Positions 18,983-35,883 of a DNA stretch of 64,000 bases are shown here, piece by piece. This DNA comes from an uncultured Desulfospira sp. (GTDB lineage Bacteria; Desulfobacterota; Desulfobacteria; Desulfobacterales; Desulfobacteraceae), in the NCBI GenBank assembly GCA_963663165.1, contig OY760175.1, positions 5,312,001-5,376,000 on the forward strand, in the 5' to 3' direction. Numbering within the stretch: position 1 is the first letter of the stretch; each line of letters opens with the position of its first letter. A program made the position numbers and the translations under genes. Under the pieces are notes generated by a model, which had not been told where the DNA came from, ran no database searches, and saw only the letters and a list, made by a program, of their open reading frames with translations.

Positions 18983-20053
18983 TTAATCTTCGGGAGCGCC
19001 CAGTTTGGAAGCCATGTCGTTTATATCCAGCAGGTCGTTTTCCACTGTGGAAATGGTGGCCTCTTCAAGGTCCAGATTCTTGGCCGCTTCCAGGGCAACA
19101 ATAATTTCTCCGCCCACCCCCTGCATGGCAAGATTCCGCAATCGTTCACCTTCGGCTTCGGACTGTTTTACCAGCAGATGTCCTTCCGCGTCTTTTTTGG
19201 CTTCATAGACATCGGCATCCGCTTTTTTTTCAGTGGCATATTTTTCCGAATCGGCTCTAATGGCCGCAATGGTCAAGTCGGTTTCCGCTTTCATCCGGAC
19301 CAGTTCGGCATCTTTTTCTTCCTGGATGATCTTGATAAGCCGTTTGGTTTCCGCACCGATTACATCTGTTTTGCCCTGCATCTCCCTTGCCCGCTGCAGG
19401 GATTTATTCACCTCAACTTCCTGGTCGGCCAGTTTCTTGGTTTGAATTTTGCGTTCATATTCCGGGTCGAACTGAACATCACGAATCAGCAAGTCAAGTA
19501 CTTCGACATAGTTATCTTTTAACGATTCCTGTAGGGCTTGCAACGCTGTCTGAGCCACAGCCCTGCGCACATGGGGGTTATAAAAGTCTTCTGTTTTCAT
19601 CCCCCCGAACTGGGCGATACAGGTCTTTTCCGCCTCGTTTCTCACAATTGTTTTGTAACGGTTTCCGCTTCCCGTATCCACATACAGCTTATGGGCCATA
19701 CCCGGCTTTATTCTGTACTTTAAGGTCACATCCACAGATACGGCGTAACCGTCGGCCGATTGCACCTGGACGTCATCCCGTCCTTTTCTGTCCCCTTTTT
19801 GGGGATCCCGCGTCATTTCCAGGGTCTGGGCGGTGCTGTCAAAAAACTGCCAGGTATCGACGGGCCAGACAGCCCTGTGCCACCCCGGGCCAAAGTCTTG
19901 TTGAACCACCCCTTTGCTTCCGATCAGGGCATACTCCTGGGTGCGCACCCCGACAATACCCACCGGAATGTGGGTGACCGTTAACGTCAGTATAAAATAA
20001 GAGCCAATGGCGGCAACAATAATCACAATGCTGACCAGTTTTATGTGCTTCAT
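18983..20053 (-). CDS. SPFH/band-7 (prohibitin/HflC-like) membrane protein
   Basis: N-terminal TM, SADGYAVSVDVTLKYRI, Ala/Glu coiled-coil tail. Confidence 0.85.
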   Translation of the reverse strand: MKHIKLVSIVIIVAAIGSYFILTLTVTHIPVGIVGVRTQEYALIGSKGVVQQDFGPGWHRAVWPVDTWQFFDSTAQTLEMTRDPQKGDRKGRDDVQVQSADGYAVSVDVTLKYRIKPGMAHKLYVDTGSGNRYKTIVRNEAEKTCIAQFGGMKTEDFYNPHVRRAVAQTALQALQESLKDNYVEVLDLLIRDVQFDPEYERKIQTKKLADQEVEVNKSLQRAREMQGKTDVIGAETKRLIKIIQEEKDAELVRMKAETDLTIAAIRADSEKYATEKKADADVYEAKKDAEGHLLVKQSEAEGERLRNLAMQGVGGEIIVALEAAKNLDLEEATISTVENDLLDINDMASKLGAPED

Positions 20054-20098
20054 GTGATCTCCTCACATTTTGTTTTTTAATAGGTTTGTGTTAACCGG

Positions 20099-20193
20099 TT
20101 TTATATGAAAGTCTTACTAACATATTGAAAAGATTTTCATTTTTCGTTGCGAGCGGTTCTTGGTTGGATACCCAAGGCGGTCTGCGGCCGTTA
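20099..20193 (-). repeat. Dispersed ~95-bp repeat, copy 3
   Basis: Same family as 10399-10493. Its terminal TAAC supplies the stop codon of the upstream SPFH gene. Confidence 0.85.
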
Positions 20194-21306
20194 TTCGGAT
20201 TCCGGTTTTTGTTTTTGTGAAGCTGCCGCAGCATGTTCGAACCGTTCGGTCCGGCTCTCCACGGTGTATGGCTGGCCTGTGATCTTAAGGCCCTTGAGCT
20301 TTTTGGCGTATTCCATTTTAACCATGTTGCGCCCGCCTTTTCCTTCCAGGGCTTTTTTCAGGGATTCAATTCCCCTTGCCTCGCTTTTTTTCCGGGCAAG
20401 GGTAGCCTCGCCTTTTTTCTCCAGCCTGTAGAATTCTGCATCAGCACCGACGGTTGTCTTCTTATGATAGGCATCGGCCGCTCTTTTAACCCTTTCCGCC
20501 TCAGCCTTTGCCTGGATAACCAGTTTTTCCATTTCACCGCGAAACTGCTCCACCGCTACATTTTTTTTGGCTGTTTCGTCCACCTTGGCGGTTTCTTTGA
20601 TCTGTTCGGCGGCCAGTGCCTTGGACTGCTCTTCGAGCACGGCCTGGTCTGCCAGCTTCTTTTTCTTGATCAGTTCTTCATATTTTGCGTAAAACCGGGG
20701 TTTCTGGGGAACAACGATATCGTCCAACTGGATTCCAAAACGCTGCAGCCGCTCTTTGGCCTCCTGTTTGGCCTTCACGATCTGTGCGTTCCTTTTCGCG
20801 GAATCATAGAATTCTTCGGTTGTGAGTTCTCCCAAATGATCACGGCAGATGGACCGGACATAATCATGGGCCCATTTGTACTTATAGCGGTCCCCCGGAC
20901 CGGACGTGAACAGGACTTTTTCCGCCATGGTGGCATCAATGCGATACTGGACCTTGAGGGCAACATAAACATCACTGCCGTCAATGGTTTTTATTTTAAG
21001 CCGGTTATCGCCGGTCATGTCCAGGGTCTGCAATGTTTTTTCCAACACATAAAATTCATGGGAGATACCATTGTAAAGACGAACCCCGGACTGGGGGATG
21101 ACCTCCAGGCTCCCGCTCATTTTGTTCAATAGAATGCCCACCTGGGTGCCTTGTACGCGGCCCACACGAATACACAGCAGCAAAAGGACTACCAATACCA
21201 GAACAGCGGCGGCAACCCACAACAGATTGTTTCCGAAGAGGTGGCGCAGCGTCTTCAGGTCTGCCTTTTTTTTTCCGGGAGGAAAATCAACGTCAGTTAA
21301 TGTCAT
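20191..21306 (-). CDS. SPFH/band-7 membrane protein
   Basis: N-terminal TM, KTIDGSDVYV..VQYRID, LGELTTEEFYD, coiled-coil tail. Confidence 0.85.
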   Translation of the reverse strand: MTLTDVDFPPGKKKADLKTLRHLFGNNLLWVAAAVLVLVVLLLLCIRVGRVQGTQVGILLNKMSGSLEVIPQSGVRLYNGISHEFYVLEKTLQTLDMTGDNRLKIKTIDGSDVYVALKVQYRIDATMAEKVLFTSGPGDRYKYKWAHDYVRSICRDHLGELTTEEFYDSAKRNAQIVKAKQEAKERLQRFGIQLDDIVVPQKPRFYAKYEELIKKKKLADQAVLEEQSKALAAEQIKETAKVDETAKKNVAVEQFRGEMEKLVIQAKAEAERVKRAADAYHKKTTVGADAEFYRLEKKGEATLARKKSEARGIESLKKALEGKGGRNMVKMEYAKKLKGLKITGQPYTVESRTERFEHAAAASQKQKPESE

Positions 21307-21354
21307 TATTTATTCTCCATGGTTAAATGTTTGATATCAGTTTTTTTTAAAGGA

Positions 21355-22185
21355 TCAGTCATCGGGCGGCTTGTCTTTGTGCCGCCATATTTTCAGGGCG
21401 GTAATCGGGGCTGCCACCACAAAAAGGCCGAATAATAAGGGCAGGGGCACATGCATCAGGGCAAGGAGGAAAACCCCCAGCAGCATCCCGGCAATGCTGA
21501 AGATGATACGGATGAGCTTAAGCTCCATATCTTCGGCAACGGCTGCGGGATGTTGCAGGATATTCTCCATATTCTTTTGATACAGCGCTTTGGGGTAGGT
21601 GATGTCAGGAAACGTGTATAGAAGGGTTGCCGAATCACTGTCCAGGTCGATTTTGAGATAGTGCGCCAAAGCCATGGCCTTTAGTTTTTTTTGCATCCGT
21701 TTGAGCGTGTACCGGGAATATCCGGCCAGGTGGGATGCTGAATGCGGCTTTTTGCTTTTGGCGGATAAATAAAGAATCTCATGTTCGTAGACGGCTTTGG
21801 CCGGCCAGCCCGTGGATTCCGCCAGGCGGTTTGATTCCTTGTCAAGGGATTCTTCGCAGACCCGGCAAAGCATCTTTTCCCCGGGGGCCAGATTGGCGGT
21901 GCATGAAAGGCAGGTATGGGACGGATCACTACACGGTTCTTCATCTGATTCCCCGGCCCGGACAAATTCATATGCGGGGAATCCGTCCTGTTCGCCGGTA
22001 ACCACGGAATGTCCGTCTGTCATATTATCAAGGCAGGATCGAATTAAGTCCAGGGACAAGGGAAGATAAGGTGCCAGGTGGTTTACGGTAATAACGCCGT
22101 TATGGCCTTGTGACACTTGATAGGCCAGGTTTTCCACAATGTTCGCTGCCGTTTCATTGAGCATGCCGGTTGTTAGTTTATCCAT
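21355..22185 (-). CDS. Hypothetical protein with CxxC...CxxC motif and two C-terminal TM helices
   Basis: 276-aa ORF with CLSC...CRVC and a hydrophobic C-terminus. Co-oriented upstream of the SPFH pair. Confidence 0.7.
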   Translation of the reverse strand: MDKLTTGMLNETAANIVENLAYQVSQGHNGVITVNHLAPYLPLSLDLIRSCLDNMTDGHSVVTGEQDGFPAYEFVRAGESDEEPCSDPSHTCLSCTANLAPGEKMLCRVCEESLDKESNRLAESTGWPAKAVYEHEILYLSAKSKKPHSASHLAGYSRYTLKRMQKKLKAMALAHYLKIDLDSDSATLLYTFPDITYPKALYQKNMENILQHPAAVAEDMELKLIRIIFSIAGMLLGVFLLALMHVPLPLLFGLFVVAAPITALKIWRHKDKPPDD

Positions 22186-27066: not shown

Positions 27067-28448
27067 ACTCACAGCTTTTAAAAATATTACATCGGACCCT
27101 TGGGGGTGCCCTGTTGATCCTTTTGCTGCCGTTGTGTTTCAACGAGGCTTTGGGGGAAGTGGAAAAGCCCGCCCCCCTTTTAATGGAAATTCCCTGTGGC
27201 CGGCTGACCCTGGCCCAGGCCCAGAAGACGGCGCTTTCGGCGTCCCCTCAGGTGAAAGAAATGCTGGCCCGCATTAAAGAAGCCGATGCCCGCTGCCGGC
27301 AGGCCCGGGCCGCCTTATGGCCGACAGTGTCGGTTCATGCCGGCCACGACTGGCAGGATCTGTCCATGCGGCCGGACTGGCAGCCCCAGGTGCGCGTGGA
27401 AGAAAGCTTCACCCATTTCAATGCCGGGATCCAGGCCAACTGGCTTCTCTTTGACGGATTCAGCACCCGGGCCTCCATTCTGGCGGCAGAGGCTGACAAA
27501 CAGGCAGGCAAAAGCATTGCCGACGATGCCCGCCGCCTGGTGGTCCAGGCTGTGGCCACCGCCTTTTACCAGGCCCAGCTGGCCGCCCAGGGCATGCAGA
27601 TCGCCCGGCAGAACAGCCTGTTTAACCGGCGCCTGGAACAGGACGCTGAAAAACGCTGCCGGGCCGGTGTTGTGCCCCGGGCCGATTATTTAAATTTCAG
27701 CGTTAAATCCCTTCAGGCGGAAAATAACTTTCTTAAGGCCGGGCAATATCATGCCGTGGCCTGCGCTATGCTGGCCAGGCTGATGGTATGGCCGGACCCA
27801 ACGCTTTCCCGGGATATGGTCCCGGTGGCAGGGTCGCCGGTTGAAACCCTGGAGGAACTGCCGCAGTTTGACCGGGAACTGGCCTATGCCATGGATCGCC
27901 GGCCTGATCTAAAGTCCCTTGCCGCCAGGGAAGAGGCCCTGTTACATACCCGGATAAGTGACAAGGGCCGGTATTTCCCCAAGCTGTATCTGAAAGCCGG
28001 TTATGATTATGATGAATACCGCAATTACGGAACCATTAACCAGACCGAACACGGCAGCGCCATCGGCCTTTGCTTTGACTGGGACCTTTTCAGCGGCGGC
28101 CTTCGCCGGGCAAAAATTAGTGAAACCCAGGCACAGCTAATCCGGTTAAACCATGAAAAAGAACAAAAAATTCTGGAGATCCGAGCGGCTCTGGAACAGG
28201 CCCTCGTCAGGGCGGATGCCGCACGGGCCGTGTATCAGCGGGAACAGTATACCTTAACCCTGGTCCGGCAAATCCGTGACCATGTGGAAAAATCCTACCG
28301 GGCCGGGGCCACGACCCTGACCCGGCTCAACGAGGCCCAGACCGACCTGGTCACCCTGTCCGCCGCCGCAGCCACCAGCCGCATCAATTACCTTCAGCAG
28401 CTCGAAGCCCTGCGGGCCGAAAGCGGCCGGAACCTGGAAGACAGGTAA
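27063..28448 (+). CDS. TolC family outer-membrane efflux protein
   Basis: Signal peptide, WLLFDG and WDLFSGG repeats, helical hairpins. Confidence 0.9.
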   Translation: MNSQLLKILHRTLGGALLILLLPLCFNEALGEVEKPAPLLMEIPCGRLTLAQAQKTALSASPQVKEMLARIKEADARCRQARAALWPTVSVHAGHDWQDLSMRPDWQPQVRVEESFTHFNAGIQANWLLFDGFSTRASILAAEADKQAGKSIADDARRLVVQAVATAFYQAQLAAQGMQIARQNSLFNRRLEQDAEKRCRAGVVPRADYLNFSVKSLQAENNFLKAGQYHAVACAMLARLMVWPDPTLSRDMVPVAGSPVETLEELPQFDRELAYAMDRRPDLKSLAAREEALLHTRISDKGRYFPKLYLKAGYDYDEYRNYGTINQTEHGSAIGLCFDWDLFSGGLRRAKISETQAQLIRLNHEKEQKILEIRAALEQALVRADAARAVYQREQYTLTLVRQIRDHVEKSYRAGATTLTRLNEAQTDLVTLSAAAATSRINYLQQLEALRAESGRNLEDR

Positions 28449-28513
28449 ATGTCGTCAGCCAAACGGTTAGGCACAGTATAAATTTTTGTTGTTTATAAGC
28501 AACACATTTTGTA

Positions 28514-28608
28514 TAACGGCCACGGGCCGCTTTGGTTATCCAACCAAGAGCCGCCCACAACAAATATTGAAAGTCTTTTCAGGACCTTAGTGAGACTTTC
28601 ATATAAAA
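28514..28608 (+). repeat. Dispersed ~95-bp repeat, copy 4
   Basis: TAACGGCCACGGGCCGC...CCGCCCACAAC...GAAAGTC...GACTTTCATATAAAA. Confidence 0.85.
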
Positions 28609-28639
28609 TTAAGAAAGTGTTGACTATAGGTGACAAAAA

Positions 28640-28841
28640 ATGAAAATTCCGGATTATGAAGACGGGGACCGGCTGTATGTCCAGGCCGCTTACCTGATTC
28701 CCGATGACCGGGTAAGGGACCGTGAGTTTGGAAACCTCCTCATGGTTTCAGATAATTATCCCAAAAAAGTGGTCTCCATGGACCCGGTCACCGAAGGGTA
28801 TTGAGCATGTCCACCTGTCCGATTTCCTGCTGTCCATCTAA
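28640..28841 (+). pseudogene. C-terminal remnant of an AAA+ ATPase (COG1373/DUF4143-type), frameshifted
   Basis: Manual translation: LYVQAAYLIPDDRVRDREFGNLLMVSDNYPKKVVSMD, then in a shifted frame GIEHVHLSDFLLSI*. Confidence 0.65.
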
Positions 28842-28870
28842 CCTGAAGCGTTGCCGCATTTTCATACCTT

Positions 28871-29580
28871 TTATTGGCAACCACGAGGAAGATGCCCCTG
28901 GCGGCGATGCTGCTGTTTCATTATGCCCCAGTAATTTCTTTGGCTTTTGACCTGAAAGATTTTAAAATCCGGCAATAAAACAGCGCTTAAGTTTTTTCCG
29001 TAACAGCATCCGGTGTCCACAAAGAATATCCGGTCATGCACCACGGCCACTTCTCCTATTTATTTTTTGAACACCCTTTTTTGGGAGATGTCCCGGTGGC
29101 CGGCAATAATGGGTTTTTCCGGATCACAAAGGTCATACCAGGGCTTGTTGTACTGTTTTTTTAAATATTGCTCTCCGTTGCGTGTCCCCAAGAGCACCTG
29201 CTTTTTTTGTCGGTCAAGGGGAACCCCCGGTTCAAGGAAACCGTGGATCAGCAGGGCCGGCTCTGTATCCATATAAACGGGCAGTTTCCTTAGCCATTGG
29301 ATCAGGCCTTCATACCCTGTCCGTGAAAATTCCTGCCGGGTGATTTCCTGGGCCGTTGAAGGGGGAACAATGCCCTGGTGGCAGAGAAGATGCTTGTGTT
29401 CATGGTTCCCCAACAGGGAGCAGGCCTGTTCATTTTTGATAAAAAAATCAGTCGCCGGTTTGGAATCCGGCCCCCGGTCCAGCATATCCCCTAGAGAGAT
29501 GATCCGGTCCCGGAGTGAGAGGCCGGCTTTTTCAATCAAAGCCGCAAGTTCCCTGTAACAGCCGTAAATGTTATTCATGA
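28871..29580 (-). pseudogene. Metallophosphoesterase (PrpE/ApaH-like), 5'-damaged with an in-frame stop
   Basis: GDMLDRGP, GNHE, HG and GH motifs are present. The first DxH motif reads NIYG next to a REP. The same frame continues past TAA (29060-29062) with VDTGCCYGKNLSA. Confidence 0.75.
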
Positions 29581-29582
29581 AA

Positions 29583-29640
29583 GGGCGATTCATGAATCGC
29601 CCCTACGGCCGACCCAACAACACTGCCTCATCCGGTCGCC
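29583..29640. repeat. GTAG-type REP element
   Basis: GGGCGATTCATGAATCGCCCCTAC plus tail CCCAACAACAC, shared with 50489-50550. Confidence 0.75.
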
Positions 29641-29887
29641 CGTTTTCGGTCTCCGGACTCTTTTTTATATATCATAAAATTTACAACAACATCCAACCAT
29701 CATGGCGGATTATAAGTGTGGTTATCCTGGATACAAATCTTGACTTTAGGGCCTGGGGTATCCTATATCCAGAAGCATTCAAAAATCTGCAGCTATGGAT
29801 AGATCTGCAGTACCAACTTTTCGCGATCAATACCGGCTGCCTGAGAGTAAACCTGTTTTTTGATTTCAAACGGTAGGGGACAAGCGG

Positions 29888-32293
29888 GTGCCGGTATTTC
29901 CTGAGATCATGATTCTGCCTTCCATGACATGTCCGGCCTCTTGCGCCTATTGTTTCGGACCCCATGACGGACCGATAGCATCCCGGGACGTGATGGACCG
30001 GATTCTGGATTGGATTGCCTTTCTTCCCGAGATTCCGGCGGACCGGCCCGTCCGGGTTACCCTGCACGGGGGCGAACCCCTAACCCTGGGACGGCCTGCC
30101 CTTGAGTATATGTTTCAGGGCCTGTCGGACCGGCTGGGCGGGCCTCACCGGGTGGCGTGGGCCCTTCAAAGCAACCTGTGGGCCATGGACAGAACCATGG
30201 CGGGCCTTATGGCTGATTTTCACGTCCGGGTGGGCACCAGTCTGGACGGGCCTCAAGACATCACCGATGCCCAGCGGGGCAGGGGATATTTTGCAAGGAC
30301 CCGGGCGGGGATGGAATGCCTGATGTCCCAGGGCATTAAGGCGGCCTGCATTGCCACGGTGACCTCCCAAAGCGGTTCCCGCCGTCAGGAGATCTTGGAT
30401 TTTTTTATTGAAGATGAAACGGATTTCTCCGTTCATCCCGCCATTCAGGGTTTAGGGAAAACTCATGGTTACGGGCTTTCCCCGGATCAATACGGCGGGT
30501 TGCTCTGCGGCCTGCTGGACGACTATTTGCCCTTTCGCCACCGGATCCGGATTCCCACCCTGGACCGGCTGTGCCGGGCTGTGGCCTTTCAAAAGCCTTT
30601 GGAGTGTACCTTTCGTCCCTGCCTGGGACTGTTTCTGGTGGTGGACCCCATGGGATATATTTATTCATGCCAGCGGTTTGCCGGCCACAGGGAATACGCT
30701 CTTGGCCATGTCAGCCAAAATCCGGATGTGCCCGCGCTCTTGGACAGTCCGGTGGCCCGCTGGCTGAATCAATGGCAGCAGGACCGTGAATCCGGCTGCC
30801 GTGGCTGCCCGGATCTGAACATCTGCAATGGCGGCTGTCCCTATCAGGCCGTGAGCCCTAACCCGGCGTCACCATTGGCAGACCCCTATTGCCGGGCGTA
30901 TCAGCAGATATTTTCCCATATCCGCCAAAAACTGTCCCAAGAGATTGCATCGGATGAAAATATCCAGGCCATGACTGAAATCCCGTGGAACGGGCAGGGC
31001 AATCCCCTGTTTTCCCGGGGGCCGGTCATCGACCTGGTCAGAAGCCAAAGCCATCCCAAAACATGGGTCCAAAACAGCCGCACCATTCTTCGGGCCCACC
31101 GGCTGGGCTGTCACGAAACCATTTCGGCGGCAGCCAGTGCCCTGGTCGCTGAAGGGATTGACGCAACCCCTCAGCAGTCCGAAGACCGGCTGAACCAAAT
31201 GCTCACCCAGATGCGCAAACCAGGGCGGAATACCCTTTATCTGCACATTACATGGCGGTGCGGCCTGGCCTGCAACCATTGCTACGCCCAAGGGCCTGGA
31301 AAAACAAATGGACTGGACATGGCCGTGGCAGACCTGGAAGAGGCGGCGGTATCCGCAGCGGGCCTGGGCTTCCGCCAGGTCGTCCTGACCGGAGGGGAAC
31401 CCTCGGACCACCCGTTCTGGAACAGGATTCTTAAACAGTTGACCCATATCCGGCGAACCTGTCCCCATGTCAAGTGGGCACTGCGGACCCACCTGGCCGG
31501 CGACCTGACGTTGGGGGACATGGCCCTCATGGCCGCAGCCTTTGATAAGATTGTGGTCAGCCTTGACGGGGATCAGGCCGTTCATGACGCCCGCCGGGGG
31601 CCGGGCGCTTACCAGCGAACCGTGAACCATATCCGGCAGTATCAGGAACAATATGGTCCGGACAGCCCCGGCTGCCTGGCTGTCGGCACACAGGCCCGCC
31701 TGGAACTTGCCTGCACCCAGACCCCGGAGAGCCTGATGGGAGATCCCGGCCGGCATGTGGCATCCCTTGCCCGTCACATGGGAATCCAAAAGACGAGGAT
31801 GCGCCCCGTACTGCCCTTGGGCCGGGCATCCGGCACAGGCCTGGCGCTTTCGCCCATCCGGGGAATTGCCCTGGATGATCCTGAACGTGTGCTGGTGCGC
31901 GGCCTTGAACCGGTCTTAACCTGCGGCCTGGGCCAGAACCTGTCCGTGGACCCGGACGGGACGGTATTTCCCTGCCATGCGGCCCGGTCCGAAGCGTATC
32001 TTCTGGGAAACCTTTTTTCCGGGTCCATGGATATGGAACAGATCCTTGGTGGTTTAGGAAATCAGTTTGCCTGGCCTGATGTGGTGGATGGTTTCGGGCT
32101 GTGCCGACCTTGCGAGTTCCGGTACCTGTGCGGCGGCATGTGCCTGGCCTGGCATGATCTTCTGCCGGCTCCCTTTGAGCCTGAAATTCACTGCAGAAAG
32201 CAGTACGGTTTTTTCAAGCGCCTGACAGGGCAGGCCCGAGCCTGTCTGGAAGCGCATCATCTTCTAAAGACAACAAGTGAAAGGGGTTTCTGA
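29888..32293 (+). CDS. Tandem (double) radical SAM/SPASM protein
   Basis: Two CxxxCxxC motifs (CPASCAYC, CGLACNHC), each with GGEP and SLDG and its own SPASM Cys array (CRGC..ICNGGC; CRPC..LCGGMC). GTG start. Confidence 0.9.
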   Translation: MPVFPEIMILPSMTCPASCAYCFGPHDGPIASRDVMDRILDWIAFLPEIPADRPVRVTLHGGEPLTLGRPALEYMFQGLSDRLGGPHRVAWALQSNLWAMDRTMAGLMADFHVRVGTSLDGPQDITDAQRGRGYFARTRAGMECLMSQGIKAACIATVTSQSGSRRQEILDFFIEDETDFSVHPAIQGLGKTHGYGLSPDQYGGLLCGLLDDYLPFRHRIRIPTLDRLCRAVAFQKPLECTFRPCLGLFLVVDPMGYIYSCQRFAGHREYALGHVSQNPDVPALLDSPVARWLNQWQQDRESGCRGCPDLNICNGGCPYQAVSPNPASPLADPYCRAYQQIFSHIRQKLSQEIASDENIQAMTEIPWNGQGNPLFSRGPVIDLVRSQSHPKTWVQNSRTILRAHRLGCHETISAAASALVAEGIDATPQQSEDRLNQMLTQMRKPGRNTLYLHITWRCGLACNHCYAQGPGKTNGLDMAVADLEEAAVSAAGLGFRQVVLTGGEPSDHPFWNRILKQLTHIRRTCPHVKWALRTHLAGDLTLGDMALMAAAFDKIVVSLDGDQAVHDARRGPGAYQRTVNHIRQYQEQYGPDSPGCLAVGTQARLELACTQTPESLMGDPGRHVASLARHMGIQKTRMRPVLPLGRASGTGLALSPIRGIALDDPERVLVRGLEPVLTCGLGQNLSVDPDGTVFPCHAARSEAYLLGNLFSGSMDMEQILGGLGNQFAWPDVVDGFGLCRPCEFRYLCGGMCLAWHDLLPAPFEPEIHCRKQYGFFKRLTGQARACLEAHHLLKTTSERGF

Positions 32294-34290
32294 TGTGGCC
32301 TCATGAAATGCTGATGTTCTCAAAGTGGTATGTCCTGGCGGGCAGCCTTGCGGTGGGCCTGGCCTTATATGTTGTGGCTGACGGTGTTCTTTATTATGCC
32401 CGCTGGCGGGTCCTGACAAACGGATATCTGGCGGCCTGTTGTTTTTTGACCGGGCTTTTGTGTATGGCGCTGATAGTGTTTATAAACTTCGGTACGCCGT
32501 TAAAACAGATCCTGCTTTATCTTTTTTATGGGACGGTTCTGGTGTATCCGGTTTTTCTGTCCATGGCCGCAGCGGTTCGATGGGCCCTGAGGTTAAAGCC
32601 TGACGGCGATATCATCAATAACCAGTTGAATGAGGCCCTCCGGGAGAATTCAGACTATGTTTTTACAGTTTTAAAAAAGATTGTTCCAGGTATCCATATG
32701 CCCGATAAATTAGGGCTTGTCAGGGCCCTTTGCCATGATAACCCTGAAATAAGGCAAAGTGCCGTGAATGCCGCTCTGGCTGCCGGAATGAACCAGGATA
32801 TAGAAAAGGCCGTTCAGGGCGACACCGGTGATTTTGAGCGGCTGGGTGATTTGGGGGATGAAGATTTTCTTTACCGGCTGATGCCCGTTGCCGCCAAAGA
32901 CAACAAAGAAGCCATGGCCGCGGCCAGGGGGCTCCTTGCCATGGCCCAAAAGAACGGCATATCACCGGATATGGCATATGTTCTGCTCAAAATCCTTCAG
33001 GACGGTCCGTCGGGTAAAACAACGGAATTCATCCTGAACCGGCTGCTTGAGAACGAGTATGGGGGCGTAATTTATGAAAAACTGCTTCAGGATCAGGATA
33101 AAAAAATCCAGAACCTGGCGGCCCAATTTTATTTTGAGGCTCTAAAAAAAGGTTCCATGCCCGCCCACAGTTCCTGGCGTAAAGCCGACAAAATATTCCT
33201 TAACCGCCATGCCAGGGGTCTCACTGAACTTATGTGTTCCCACAAACCCAATGATCAGAGGAGCGCACTTAACATATGCAGCTTGTTGGGCGTATCCATC
33301 CCGTCGCTTCAAACCGGGAAAAGAGCCGGTGATTATTTTGTACAATTGGGCCGGTCTGAGCAGCCCTGGATTCTGGAACAGTTAATTCGCAATGCCCGGT
33401 CTAAAAAAATTGAAATTGCCCTGCCCGCCGTCAGGGGGTTGGCCGCCATGGTGGAAACAGGCCGGATTCCCGCCGGATTGCAACCCTCGCTAAAGTCCGG
33501 CCGGATCAGGACGTCTGCGCCTGAACAGGCAAACACCCTTGATGCGCCGCCGCCGGAGTTTTTACCGGTAACCGGCGAGGTGTTAAGTTTGCTCTATGAA
33601 AAGATTAAACCGTCCCTGGAGAGGGGCTTGTGCCACCCGGACGGTCAAATACGGCAGGAAGCGGCCCGTCTGGCCGTGGTCTTTGGCATGGACCCGGCCA
33701 TTACCGCCGCAGTCCGGGGGGATCTTAACGATTTTGAGCGGTTGGGAGAATCCGTGGGCGGGGAATTCCTGCTTGATCCTTTGCTCAACATCGCTCTGGA
33801 AGAAAGTCAAGCCAGTGAGCCTGCGGCAAGAGGATTGGCAGGGCTGTACCACCGCTTAAACATTTCCCAGGAATATCTTAAAAAAATGATTCTGCAGGGC
33901 AGGGCCCCGGTGCCGGATATTGCCATCGAAGCACTGGCCAAAAAAGGGGATGCCGGTGCCGGGATTCTGCTGGGTTTGCTGAAATCGAACGACGTTGGCC
34001 TGAGGAAAAAGGCGGCAAAGGCCCTGGTGGCCTGCGCACAGAAAGCTGAAAACGGATTTGGCGACCACTGGTGGACCATGAAAAACCTCATTACTGCCCC
34101 CCACACGGATACCACCGGCAGTCACCAGGACGGGTACCATTGTGATTATGACCGCGGCTGCACCATATACGGGTGTGATCCCCATACGGATATGATGGTT
34201 AAAGACAGGGATGGTTACCGGGTCCACCGCATGAATCGGACCACCCCTCATTCAGATAATATGGGGATTGGATTAAAGTTTGATCCATAG
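32293..34290 (+). CDS. Membrane-anchored HEAT-repeat protein with C-terminal His-x-Asp repeat tail
   Basis: About three N-terminal TM segments, HEAT-like units (LLKSNDVGLRKKAAKALV), an internal duplication, and five HxD motifs. TGATG coupling to the rSAM gene. Confidence 0.8.
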   Translation: MWPHEMLMFSKWYVLAGSLAVGLALYVVADGVLYYARWRVLTNGYLAACCFLTGLLCMALIVFINFGTPLKQILLYLFYGTVLVYPVFLSMAAAVRWALRLKPDGDIINNQLNEALRENSDYVFTVLKKIVPGIHMPDKLGLVRALCHDNPEIRQSAVNAALAAGMNQDIEKAVQGDTGDFERLGDLGDEDFLYRLMPVAAKDNKEAMAAARGLLAMAQKNGISPDMAYVLLKILQDGPSGKTTEFILNRLLENEYGGVIYEKLLQDQDKKIQNLAAQFYFEALKKGSMPAHSSWRKADKIFLNRHARGLTELMCSHKPNDQRSALNICSLLGVSIPSLQTGKRAGDYFVQLGRSEQPWILEQLIRNARSKKIEIALPAVRGLAAMVETGRIPAGLQPSLKSGRIRTSAPEQANTLDAPPPEFLPVTGEVLSLLYEKIKPSLERGLCHPDGQIRQEAARLAVVFGMDPAITAAVRGDLNDFERLGESVGGEFLLDPLLNIALEESQASEPAARGLAGLYHRLNISQEYLKKMILQGRAPVPDIAIEALAKKGDAGAGILLGLLKSNDVGLRKKAAKALVACAQKAENGFGDHWWTMKNLITAPHTDTTGSHQDGYHCDYDRGCTIYGCDPHTDMMVKDRDGYRVHRMNRTTPHSDNMGIGLKFDP

Positions 34291-34504
34291 TCGGGAAACT
34301 TTTTTATATTAGGGAAACAGATTCAATCTGCTAATGTTTTTACGAAAAGAAAAGGTTTGACAAAACAATGCCAGGGCAATGGGGTCCGGCCCCTATTAAC
34401 CGGCAAAACAATTGAAATTCGGGGTGTTCAAAAAGGCTTGACAGGGCACCACAAGTCCTTTAGTTAATGAGCATCTTGCGATAAACAGATGCTTAGAGGA
34501 TAAT

Positions 34505-34591
34505 ATGTTTTTTCGGTATGATTACTTTTTTATATTTACCTGCTTTGGCAGCTTCTTTTTTACCAGGTCTGCCCAGGGAGAGTTAATGTAA
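34505..34591 (+). CDS. Phe-rich leader peptide (MFFRYDYFFIFTCFGSFFFTRSAQGELM)
   Basis: AGAGGA RBS, 9 Phe and 2 Tyr in 28 codons, followed by antiterminator/terminator. Confidence 0.8.
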   Translation: MFFRYDYFFIFTCFGSFFFTRSAQGELM

Positions 34592-34617
34592 CATATCGAA
34601 AAGATAAGGGTGAACTC

Positions 34618-34667
34618 AAACCATGGGCAGACGGAAAAGCCGGCTGATCCATGGTTTTTTTATTTTT
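34618..34667 (+). terminator. Attenuator terminator upstream of the ABC operon
   Basis: AAACCATGGGCAGACGG-aaaag-CCGGCTGATCCATGGTTT followed by a T-run. The 5' arm TGGGCAGAC can alternatively pair with GTCTGCCCA (34567-34575). Confidence 0.8.
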
Positions 34668-34737
34668 AGGGGCTTTGGACAGCGGATTAAAAAACAGCCC
34701 GTGACATTTTAAACTTTATTTAAAAGGAGTAAAAACA

Positions 34738-35883
34738 ATGGCAATGAAAAAGATCTTAACCCTGCTGCTGACAATCAGTTTGTGCCTTACCCCCCTTACC
34801 GGGCTGATGGCCAAGACCGTGTACAAGGTGGGCGGCATTTTTTCATCCACGGGCCGGGCCTCTTTTCTGGGTGATCCGGAGATGAAAACCATGGAGATGC
34901 TGGTGGATAAGATCAACGCGGCCGGCGGCATTGACGGGGCCATGCTTGAGGCCGTGATCTATGATTCCGAGGGCGATCCGGCAAAAGCGGTGTCAGCGGT
35001 GAACAAACTGATCCATAAAGACAAGGTCCTGGCCATTATCGGGCCATCCACCACCCCGACCTCCATGGCCATTATCAATTTTGTAGAACGGGCCAAAATT
35101 CCGCTGATTTCCTGCGCTGCCGGGGTGAACATCACCACCCCGATCAAACCCTATGTGTTCAAGACCGCTCAGAGCGATCTTCTGGCCGTGGCCGCCGTTT
35201 ACCAGCACATGCAGAAACAGGGGATCAAAAAGATCGGAATCATCTCTGTGGCCAACTCTTTCGGGGAAAGCGGCCGGGATCAGCTGCTGAATCAGGCCAA
35301 GGATTTCGGCCTTGAGGTGGTCCAGGCTGAAAGTTTCGGGGCCAAGGATACGGATACCACAGCCCAGTTGACCAAAATCAAGTCCAAATCCCCGGATGCC
35401 ATTGTCTGCTGGGGAACCAACCCGGGACCGGCCGTGGTGGCCAAGAACGTTAAGCAGCTTAAAATCGATATCCCCCTTTACCAGAGCCACGGGGTGGGGT
35501 CTCCCAAGTTTATAGAGCTTGCCGGAGATGCGGCTGAAGGCATTATCCTGCCCACGGGCAAAATTCTGGTCACTGATCTGCTGGACCCTGCCGATCCCCA
35601 GAAAAGGATTCTGGAAGATTACCGGGCCGATTATACGGCAGCTTATAAAGGCAATGTTTCCGGGTTTGGCGGGTATGCCTTTGATGCGGTGAATCTTCTT
35701 GCCGGAGCCCTTAAAGGGACCGGGGGAGACAAGGAAAAAATTCGTGCAAACCTTGAAGCCACCCAAAATCATATCGGTGCAACCGGCGAGTTTAATTTTT
35801 CAGATCAAGATCATAACGGGCTTTCCCCGAGTGCCTTTGTTATGGTAGAAATCAAAAACGGAACATGGAAATTAATTAAATAG
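34738..35883 (+). CDS. ABC transporter substrate-binding protein (LivK/HAAT family)
   Basis: Signal peptide, INAAGGIDG, YDSEGDP, IIGPSTT. Confidence 0.92.
   Translation: MAMKKILTLLLTISLCLTPLTGLMAKTVYKVGGIFSSTGRASFLGDPEMKTMEMLVDKINAAGGIDGAMLEAVIYDSEGDPAKAVSAVNKLIHKDKVLAIIGPSTTPTSMAIINFVERAKIPLISCAAGVNITTPIKPYVFKTAQSDLLAVAAVYQHMQKQGIKKIGIISVANSFGESGRDQLLNQAKDFGLEVVQAESFGAKDTDTTAQLTKIKSKSPDAIVCWGTNPGPAVVAKNVKQLKIDIPLYQSHGVGSPKFIELAGDAAEGIILPTGKILVTDLLDPADPQKRILEDYRADYTAAYKGNVSGFGGYAFDAVNLLAGALKGTGGDKEKIRANLEATQNHIGATGEFNFSDQDHNGLSPSAFVMVEIKNGTWKLIK

Follow-up and report, generated by a model that had tools for sequence, protein, structure and literature searches.

What does a radical S-adenosylmethionine (rSAM) enzyme with two catalytic units modify when no short precursor peptide is encoded beside it? 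The question is raised by a gene pair in a 64,000-nucleotide stretch of DNA from an uncultured Desulfospira sp. (assembly GCA_963663165.1, contig OY760175.1, positions 5,312,001 to 5,376,000; hereafter the window, with coordinates counted from its first letter). Gene 1 encodes a double rSAM/SPASM enzyme and gene 2 a HEAT-repeat protein, here called the carrier, whose C-terminal tail bears a series of His-x-Asp (HxD) motifs. We find that the double enzyme and its HEAT-HxD partner are a real, conserved system and that the HxD tail is very probably the enzyme's substrate. With a probability of roughly 0.6, the two domains perform two chemistries, a His-Asp crosslink and a Cys thioether, on a loop that is retained on the HEAT scaffold. 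The pair and the tail module consist of the following elements.

29888..32293, plus strand: double radical SAM/SPASM enzyme of 801 aa (gene 1), from family models, AlphaFold and homologues.
32291..32295, plus strand: TGATG stop/start overlap coupling gene 1 and gene 2, from the sequence.
32293..34290, plus strand: carrier of 665 aa (gene 2), with three N-terminal transmembrane (TM) segments, a HEAT/PBS-lyase-like solenoid and a C-terminal substrate-like module, from sequence scans.
33967..34101, plus strand: conserved last HEAT unit and the helix before the first HxD, from alignment A2, with confident helices in the model.
34102..34257, plus strand: core of 52 residues with three Cys and five HxD motifs, from a motif count, with low model confidence in its middle.
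34258..34287, plus strand: follower of GIG(V/L)xF(P) type, from the alignment, predicted to be ordered (predicted local distance difference test score, pLDDT, of 86 for the last residues).

Both open reading frames (ORFs), 29888-32293 with a GTG start and 32293-34290, and the overlap that joins them lie where the initial annotation had placed a coupled two-gene unit. The locus is also found in contigs from two studies, one (X1) covering 29594-34800 with 0 differing letters and the other (X3) covering 29583-34455 with 5, and each gene is single-copy in the source genome (G000). The five HxD motifs that had been described in about 52 residues of the tail were recovered at residues 604-655, starting at 34102, 34123, 34138, 34183 and 34249. 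Five or more HxD arise in 1 of 10,000 shuffles of the tail's own residues, and five or more within 60 aa are found in 3 of 156,128 six-frame open stretches of the source genome, the gene 2 tail among them. No convincing short precursor peptide was seen by eye among ORFs of at least 20 aa in 28400-29900 and 34000-34800, in agreement with the annotation's remark that none is visible.

The initial annotation had reasoned that the proposal would stand or fall with HxD tails beside homologous enzymes, and we found that such tails, with their G(I/L)Gx-type end, are kept there on scaffolds of widely differing length. The best 79 and best 80 loci of two scans gave 159 loci, or 129 after reduction at 90% identity. 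When a tail was counted wherever an ORF of the same strand had two or more HxD among its final 65 residues, 49 of 67 non-redundant double-enzyme loci had one, and in 3 of the 67 a tail ORF lies on the opposite strand. Among the 18 misses, 11 have less than 1.7 kb downstream and three are Anaerolinea-type orphans (L023, L063, L147); for both orphan enzymes tested, in Anaerolinea genomes, the carrier was located elsewhere in the genome. The other four misses (L005, L084, L087, L113) do have the module, at a slightly internal position or on the opposite strand. Some carriers (at L005, L084 and L087, and P0138) were seen to have a Cys-rich, zinc-ribbon-like extension after the module.

Across carriers the C-terminal module is the only alignable part. 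Of the 95 bacterial-type loci, 69 have HEAT-cluster ORFs; 116 of these ORFs end in a stop, and the module is present in 90 of the 116. It runs from the last HEAT unit and helix through the first HxD, a variable loop with Cys and the last HxD to GIG(V/L)xF(P). G(I/L/V/M)G stands four residues past the last HxD in 132 of 202 tails. These tails were selected for at least two HxD, so that their 572 H-x-D against at most 133 in 200 shuffles is partly built in; other H-D spacings of 1, 3 and 4 number 80, 42 and 53, respectively. In tails so selected, 361 of 449 His are followed at +2 by Asp and 7 by Ser. Up to seven HxD repeats are found per carrier. Of the best 150 proteins in a profile search, 125 end in an HxD tail, 111 of them with exactly one core Cys and 59 with just two HxD. 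The carriers range from 100 to 1500 aa, and a Pfam scan of 35 carriers matched 32 to HEAT/PBS/ARM-type families and 3 to none. Moreover, 20 of 65 loci have 2-4 different carriers, and paralogous carriers differ in their cores. Conserved flanks, hypervariable cores and multiple carriers are the logic of a precursor family. Carriers outside the main HEAT cluster (L004, L142, L151) have up to 6-7 HxD, and the three scanned had no Pfam match.

In gene 2 itself, the three or so TM segments and HEAT-like repeats of the annotation were both borne out: hydrophobic segments start near residues 14, 44 and 73 in a crude Kyte-Doolittle scan, and PF02985 scores 29.1 bits (cut-off 23.5). As a defining feature the membrane anchor was rejected, with a TM-like segment in only 6 of 125 homologous carriers. 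The window carrier, membrane-anchored and with three Cys and a long loop, is atypical, since most homologous carriers lack a TM segment and have one Cys. Its C-terminus is probably cytoplasmic because basic residues follow TM1 and TM3. Gene 2 was the sole place found in G000 by a genome search with alignment A2. A search for full-length homologues of it among 8000 candidates of comparable length gave, at E<=1e-5, gene 2 alone. The module returned only generic ARM/HEAT matches in a fold search (Z<=5.3) and generic HEAT clusters at 0.89-0.91 in Atlas searches. Its model consists of confident helices, a low-confidence loop (pLDDT 50-57) and an ordered follower, with the first and last HxD in short strands (model residues 47-49 and 96-98).

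The enzyme is divided as follows.

29888..30964, plus strand: domain 1, TIGR04083-type rSAM, approximately residues 1-359, from the TIGR04083 match, SPASM Cys and fold.
31016..31222, plus strand: four-helix linker, approximately residues 377-445, from the AlphaFold model and domain-1-only homologues.
31223..32293, plus strand: domain 2, rSAM with seven SPASM Cys, approximately residues 446-801, from a homologue alignment and a PDB match.

The reading of gene 1 as a double rSAM/SPASM protein proved correct, with CxxxCxxC motifs at residues 15-22 and 458-465 and two SPASM domains. The AlphaFold model is confident (pLDDT 89, predicted template modelling score, pTM, 0.89), and at least 422 homologous protein clusters were found at E<=1e-60 among 8000 candidates scored. 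Several double homologues carry TIGR04083 as their NCBI name. The whole protein scores 306.6 bits against TIGR04083 (cut-off 300) over residues 7-359, and the same stretch scores 284, below that cut-off, in a six-frame genome search, so membership is borderline. Domain 1 has eight SPASM Cys (C240, C245, C261, C304, C307, C313, C317, C335), each present in 119-120 of the best 120 homologues, a pattern that we read as two fully ligated auxiliary clusters. Domain 2, 25% identical to domain 1, has seven (C679, C696, C739, C742, C748, C752, C769). The position of domain 1's second SPASM Cys is occupied by Asn684, which is Asn in 115 of the best 120 homologues, and no substitute Cys, His or Asp column was found near it in the 120; this position reads as a putative open site on auxiliary cluster I (Aux I). 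In the PDB, domain 2 has its best sequence match, a weak one (E 2e-6), in CteB (5WGG). The best fold matches of the whole model are, in order, anSME, ChlB and CteB, and domain 1 best matches anSME (4K39). Domain-1-only homologues end where the linker begins. The linker does not have the fold of a recognition element (RRE) in the model because it lacks a beta-sheet, and an Atlas search with it gave nothing above 0.85.

Some bacterial-type loci encode domain 1 alone, and these bear on the division of labor. The initial annotation had overlooked a conserved Cys between the HxD motifs, and this Cys tracks domain 2. In a first count, 48 of 51 double rows had a Cys-bearing tail vs 1 of 13 domain-1-only rows; the contig-cut enzymes L091, L115 and L133 (all with Cys tails) and loci with carriers outside the HEAT cluster were left out, the frameshifted L038 entered the count as a double enzyme and the label of L101 was set manually. 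With eight rows added after the rule had been noted, the figures are 55/58 and 1/14. Among the genomes met after that point, G722 has domain 1 alone and a tail with five HxD that lacks Cys, and G926 and G1148 are double with Cys in 4 of 4 carriers. In a phylogenetic comparison on quick trees, domain-1-only enzymes sit at about seven places (nine state changes). Over five well-supported independent pairs, random pairings gave ~4.2 as predicted and 0.0 opposite (median sign test p ~0.125). The covariation recurs in several lineages, which is suggestive rather than proven. Asp directly precedes the Cys in 77 of 165 single-Cys tails; Asp-Cys motifs are also described, in different gene contexts, for other predicted rSAM precursors in the available text of PMC9062424.

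On the reading that we prefer, the enzyme would recognise the last HEAT unit and helix of the carrier, a putative leader-like element, and rewrite the variable loop behind them. Domain 1 would close a three-residue ring at each His-x-Asp, most likely from an imidazole carbon to the Asp beta-carbon with a change of -2 Da each. We assign this chemistry to domain 1 because HxD persists in loci without domain 2. The i,i+2 register, in which the middle residue may be any, fits three-residue cyclophane chemistry, for which the available text of PMC11002830 lists His(C2)-to-Cbeta i,i+2 links made by HaaB and YhhB and aromatic-to-Asp(Cbeta) i,i+2 links made by YxdB and OscB, with no His-to-Asp pair among the links it lists. 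Domain 2 would bind the loop Cys at the open iron of the first auxiliary cluster and form a thioether (-2 Da). The Cys chemistry is assigned to domain 2 because of the Cys/domain-2 covariation and the seven-Cys ligand count. As far as the accessible parts of the sources go, anSME and SuiB are fully ligated and CteB has an open Aux I site that is bound by the substrate Cys (PMC6231123), and in PapB and Tte1186 a substrate Cys contacts the auxiliary cluster directly (PMC10177961). With the first and last HxD and the GIGxxFP follower holding the loop at its two ends, the product would most likely remain attached to the HEAT solenoid in the cytoplasm, forming a rigid loop rich in His, Asp and S that would probably bind a metal or a partner. 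Retention is also favored because no protease or exporter is conserved among the neighbors, as judged by their 16 largest clusters.

Several observations weigh against this reading. Five pairs cannot reach significance in a phylogenetically controlled test. L027, L058 and L131 encode double enzymes and yet have Cys-less tails in the DNA examined, L155 is domain-1-only with a Cys, and L154 has a changed domain-2 CxxxCxxC and yet three Cys tails. At L141 a separate domain-2 gene is possible because only 131 bp are available downstream. The Cys lies 5-18 residues after and 1-11 before an HxD, with no fixed spacing; a fixed Cys acceptor was rejected on this ground, and because the spacing varies no thioether acceptor can be named. 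Domain 1 scores far below every cyclophane-enzyme cut-off. If the HxD strands of the model pair, the arrangement would also suit an unmodified metal site. Finally, the archaeal single-domain relatives (33 loci) are without HEAT carriers, and TIGR04165-type Cys-rich peptides lie near 8 of the 33 (two scored against the model), so there are lineages in which domain 1 can do without an HxD substrate.

The archaeal loci have features of their own. Next to the TIGR04083 genes of L066, L072, L060 and L074 stand one or two Cys-rich peptides of TIGR04165 type that have a His in the middle; in Methanoperedens loci their place is taken by a small protein encoded downstream, which has only one Cys. The carrier module was not found in the Methanobacterium genome searched.

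Of the alternatives, the one that survives best, although quite unlikely, keeps the tail as the substrate and changes the chemistry, for example to a Cys that is oxidised or desulfurised, a bond between Cys and His, links across strands or a +8 Da change of the HXS kind. In its fold domain 1 comes closest to anSME, and it has DynA, whose pathway makes a His N-C link, as its next-best score, and the variable Cys spacing would suit such chemistry as well; in addition, HxsA of the HXS system gains +8 Da, not -2 Da, according to the accessible part of PMC13128918. Against this, the Cys tracks domain 2 rather than the anSME-like domain 1, and domain 2 has a CteB-type ligand count. Less likely still, the HEAT solenoid would be an oversized leader from which host proteases cut the crosslinked core as a small RiPP, a peptide of ribosomal origin that is modified after its translation. 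The leader/core/follower layout, the hypervariable cores and the presence of up to four carriers per locus are all in its favor. However, the 16 largest neighbor clusters of the 95 bacterial-type loci include no protease or exporter family, the scaffolds span 115 to over 1100 aa, the follower is predicted to be ordered and the window carrier is membrane-anchored. Least likely is an unmodified His/Asp/Cys metal loop (Ni, Zn, Cu or an Fe-S cluster), with the enzyme acting elsewhere or the carrier serving as an accessory subunit, which would accord with the standard metal ligands, the short strands of the terminal HxD motifs and the 59 of 125 carriers with just two HxD and 111 of 125 with one Cys, yet leaves unexplained both the strictness of the i,i+2 register over as many as seven repeats and the absence of Cys where the seven-Cys domain is absent. 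Metal binding may instead be a job of the modified loop.

Among known systems the nearest is HXS, an anti-phage system (HxsA/B/C/D), and the double-enzyme system is nevertheless not a member of it. In the available text of PMC13128918, HXS likewise has two rSAM catalytic units and rSAM-enzyme maturation of a large protein, not a short peptide, with about five His-x-(polar) repeats. There the scaffold has a peptidoglycan-binding domain and HxsA is basic and periplasmic; here it is a HEAT solenoid with C-terminal, Asp-rich and probably cytoplasmic repeats. The motif is HxD rather than HxS, the two rSAM domains are fused in one chain and the tails have a conserved Cys. The enzyme scores 81 bits, and domain 2 alone 35.3, against the HxsB model TIGR03978 (cut-off 370). 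A search of G000 with TIGR03976, which we take to be the HxsD small protein, gave no match, and neither did the controls.

The uncharacterised family TIGR04083 (rSAM_pep_methan) shares domain 1, above its cut-off for the whole protein. Its model is single-domain with ~376 positions, and the 801 aa of gene 1 include a further rSAM/SPASM domain. Archaeal members have one domain each, group in a clade of their own and are without HEAT-HxD carriers, whereas the bacterial double members have added the linker, the second rSAM/SPASM domain and the HEAT-HxD partner. With the triceptide enzymes (HaaB, YhhB, YxdB, OscB) the system shares the aromatic-x-acceptor register, His donors and Asp acceptors each being known from the accessible text on them, and the triceptide enzyme ChlB (9GM3) is the next fold match after anSME. 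The substrate here, however, is a protein of 100-1500 aa, and the enzyme falls far short of the cut-offs for AmcB (98.9/425), YhhB (97/445), GrrM/OscB (71.8/310) and FxsB (64.5/370). With the thioether SPASM maturases (CteB/SCIFF, PapB, Tte1186, AlbA) domain 2 shares seven SPASM Cys and an open Aux I, as read from sequence; it differs in scoring below the PapB, SCIFF and StsB cut-offs (42-49 bits vs 340-625), in having no RRE in the gene 1 model and in the presence of one Cys per substrate with no fixed acceptor spacing. In its workings the system resembles both a RiPP maturase pair and HXS, yet it falls outside the HXS, triceptide and ranthipeptide enzyme families.

The distribution of the system is patchy. 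Enzyme loci are found in Chloroflexota, Acidobacteriota, Bacteroidota, Planctomycetota, Armatimonadota and others. Among 401 genomes of the class to which the Anaerolinea genomes belong, the module is in 6, the enzyme in 8 and both in 5, on the assumption that the two surveys drew the same 401 genomes; two of the genomes, G789 and G822, resemble loci already in the profile. As for the mismatches, a looser threshold reveals a carrier in G722, G630 has a broken enzyme, the enzyme of G825 runs off its contig, and G793 shows no enzyme match and a carrier fragment containing a stop. The enzyme match was absent from 60 related genomes and from 400 genomes of the phylum, and the viral contigs searched gave none. 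In the window, the pair lies in a variable segment.

Approximately 28658..34292, no strand: variable block with both genes and a broken metallophosphoesterase gene, from a related-strain contig and comparison with G001.

The related-strain contig joins 28657 to 34293 (one sample, in which the intervening letters are not known), and in the same-genus genome G001 these flanks enclose a chemotaxis block of 11.8 kb instead. G001, without both genes, retains a ~74% match (L166:12468-12498) to the last 31 bases of the carrier gene (window 34260-34290), which reads as a similar short Gly-Ile-Gly-Leu stretch outside any ORF and may be a relic of a lost carrier. The metallophosphoesterase gene (28874-29593, minus strand) is in two overlapping frames, of 177 aa and a 59 aa piece, and is apparently frameshifted. 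Short gene remnants lie at the variable site at 28640-28804 (plus strand) and at L166:12230-12397; the latter has a weak AAA_14 match, and the former, with no Pfam match, presumably resembles the end of an AAA_14-type gene. High-copy, short REP-like repeats occur at 28512-28610 and ~29563-29625, the first with dozens of copies in G001. Elsewhere in the window (18983-22185, minus strand), two tandem SPFH/Band 7 genes stand behind a 276 aa protein with no family match.

Other loci have further components. An AAA_28 (kinase-like) gene is present in 20 of the 95 bacterial-type loci, for example L012:5692-6288, and at L123:10914-12026 it is fused to a TrmO-like domain. At 20 of 95 loci only, and below cut-off in G000, it was rejected as a core part, and it is possibly a third, accessory component. 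Two double-enzyme copies were found in one locus at L012 and at G789:C9 (L039/L123), and one L012 copy lacks the first Cys of the domain-2 motif.

As for the role, the patchy distribution, the variable block and the differing paralogous cores resemble those of defence or competition genes. PADLOC, run on 129 of 249 neighbor ORFs from 33 long double loci with no control set, matched Shedu (L004) and AbiE (L039 and its relative L123; L126), along with generic kinases, nucleases and desulfurases. With so few defence neighbors, the context was too weak to be called a defence island. The tails, moreover, are Asp-rich and, unlike HxsA, probably cytoplasmic, which also speaks against an anti-phage role. 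We regard anti-phage defence as a guess and a doubtful one; metal or partner binding, likewise a guess, we rate likelier.

A search of the literature, with subscription papers mostly outside its coverage and the sequence similarity network supplement of PMC9062424 a place where the family could be listed, found no description of a double-rSAM/HEAT-HxD system. It is tentatively possible, at a little under even odds, that this is a widespread undescribed class in which a two-headed enzyme writes His-Asp cyclophanes with one domain and a Cys thioether with its other domain on hypervariable loops at the C-terminal ends of HEAT solenoids, yielding displayed, ribosomally made macrocyclic binding sites that would be metal cofactor-like or an anti-phage, intracellular counterpart of HXS. 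A system of this kind would be missed by short-precursor genome mining because the core is part of a protein hundreds of residues long. It would join HXS as a second example of a large protein whose repeat motifs are matured by rSAM enzymes. Natural variants that have domain 1 alone and tails without Cys offer a ready assignment of the chemistry to each domain, and an enzyme that tolerates highly variable loops would be useful in macrocycle engineering. For the orphan family of double-domain TIGR04083 enzymes, the HxD tail is a concrete, testable substrate and, if the proposal is true, the first for the bacterial members.

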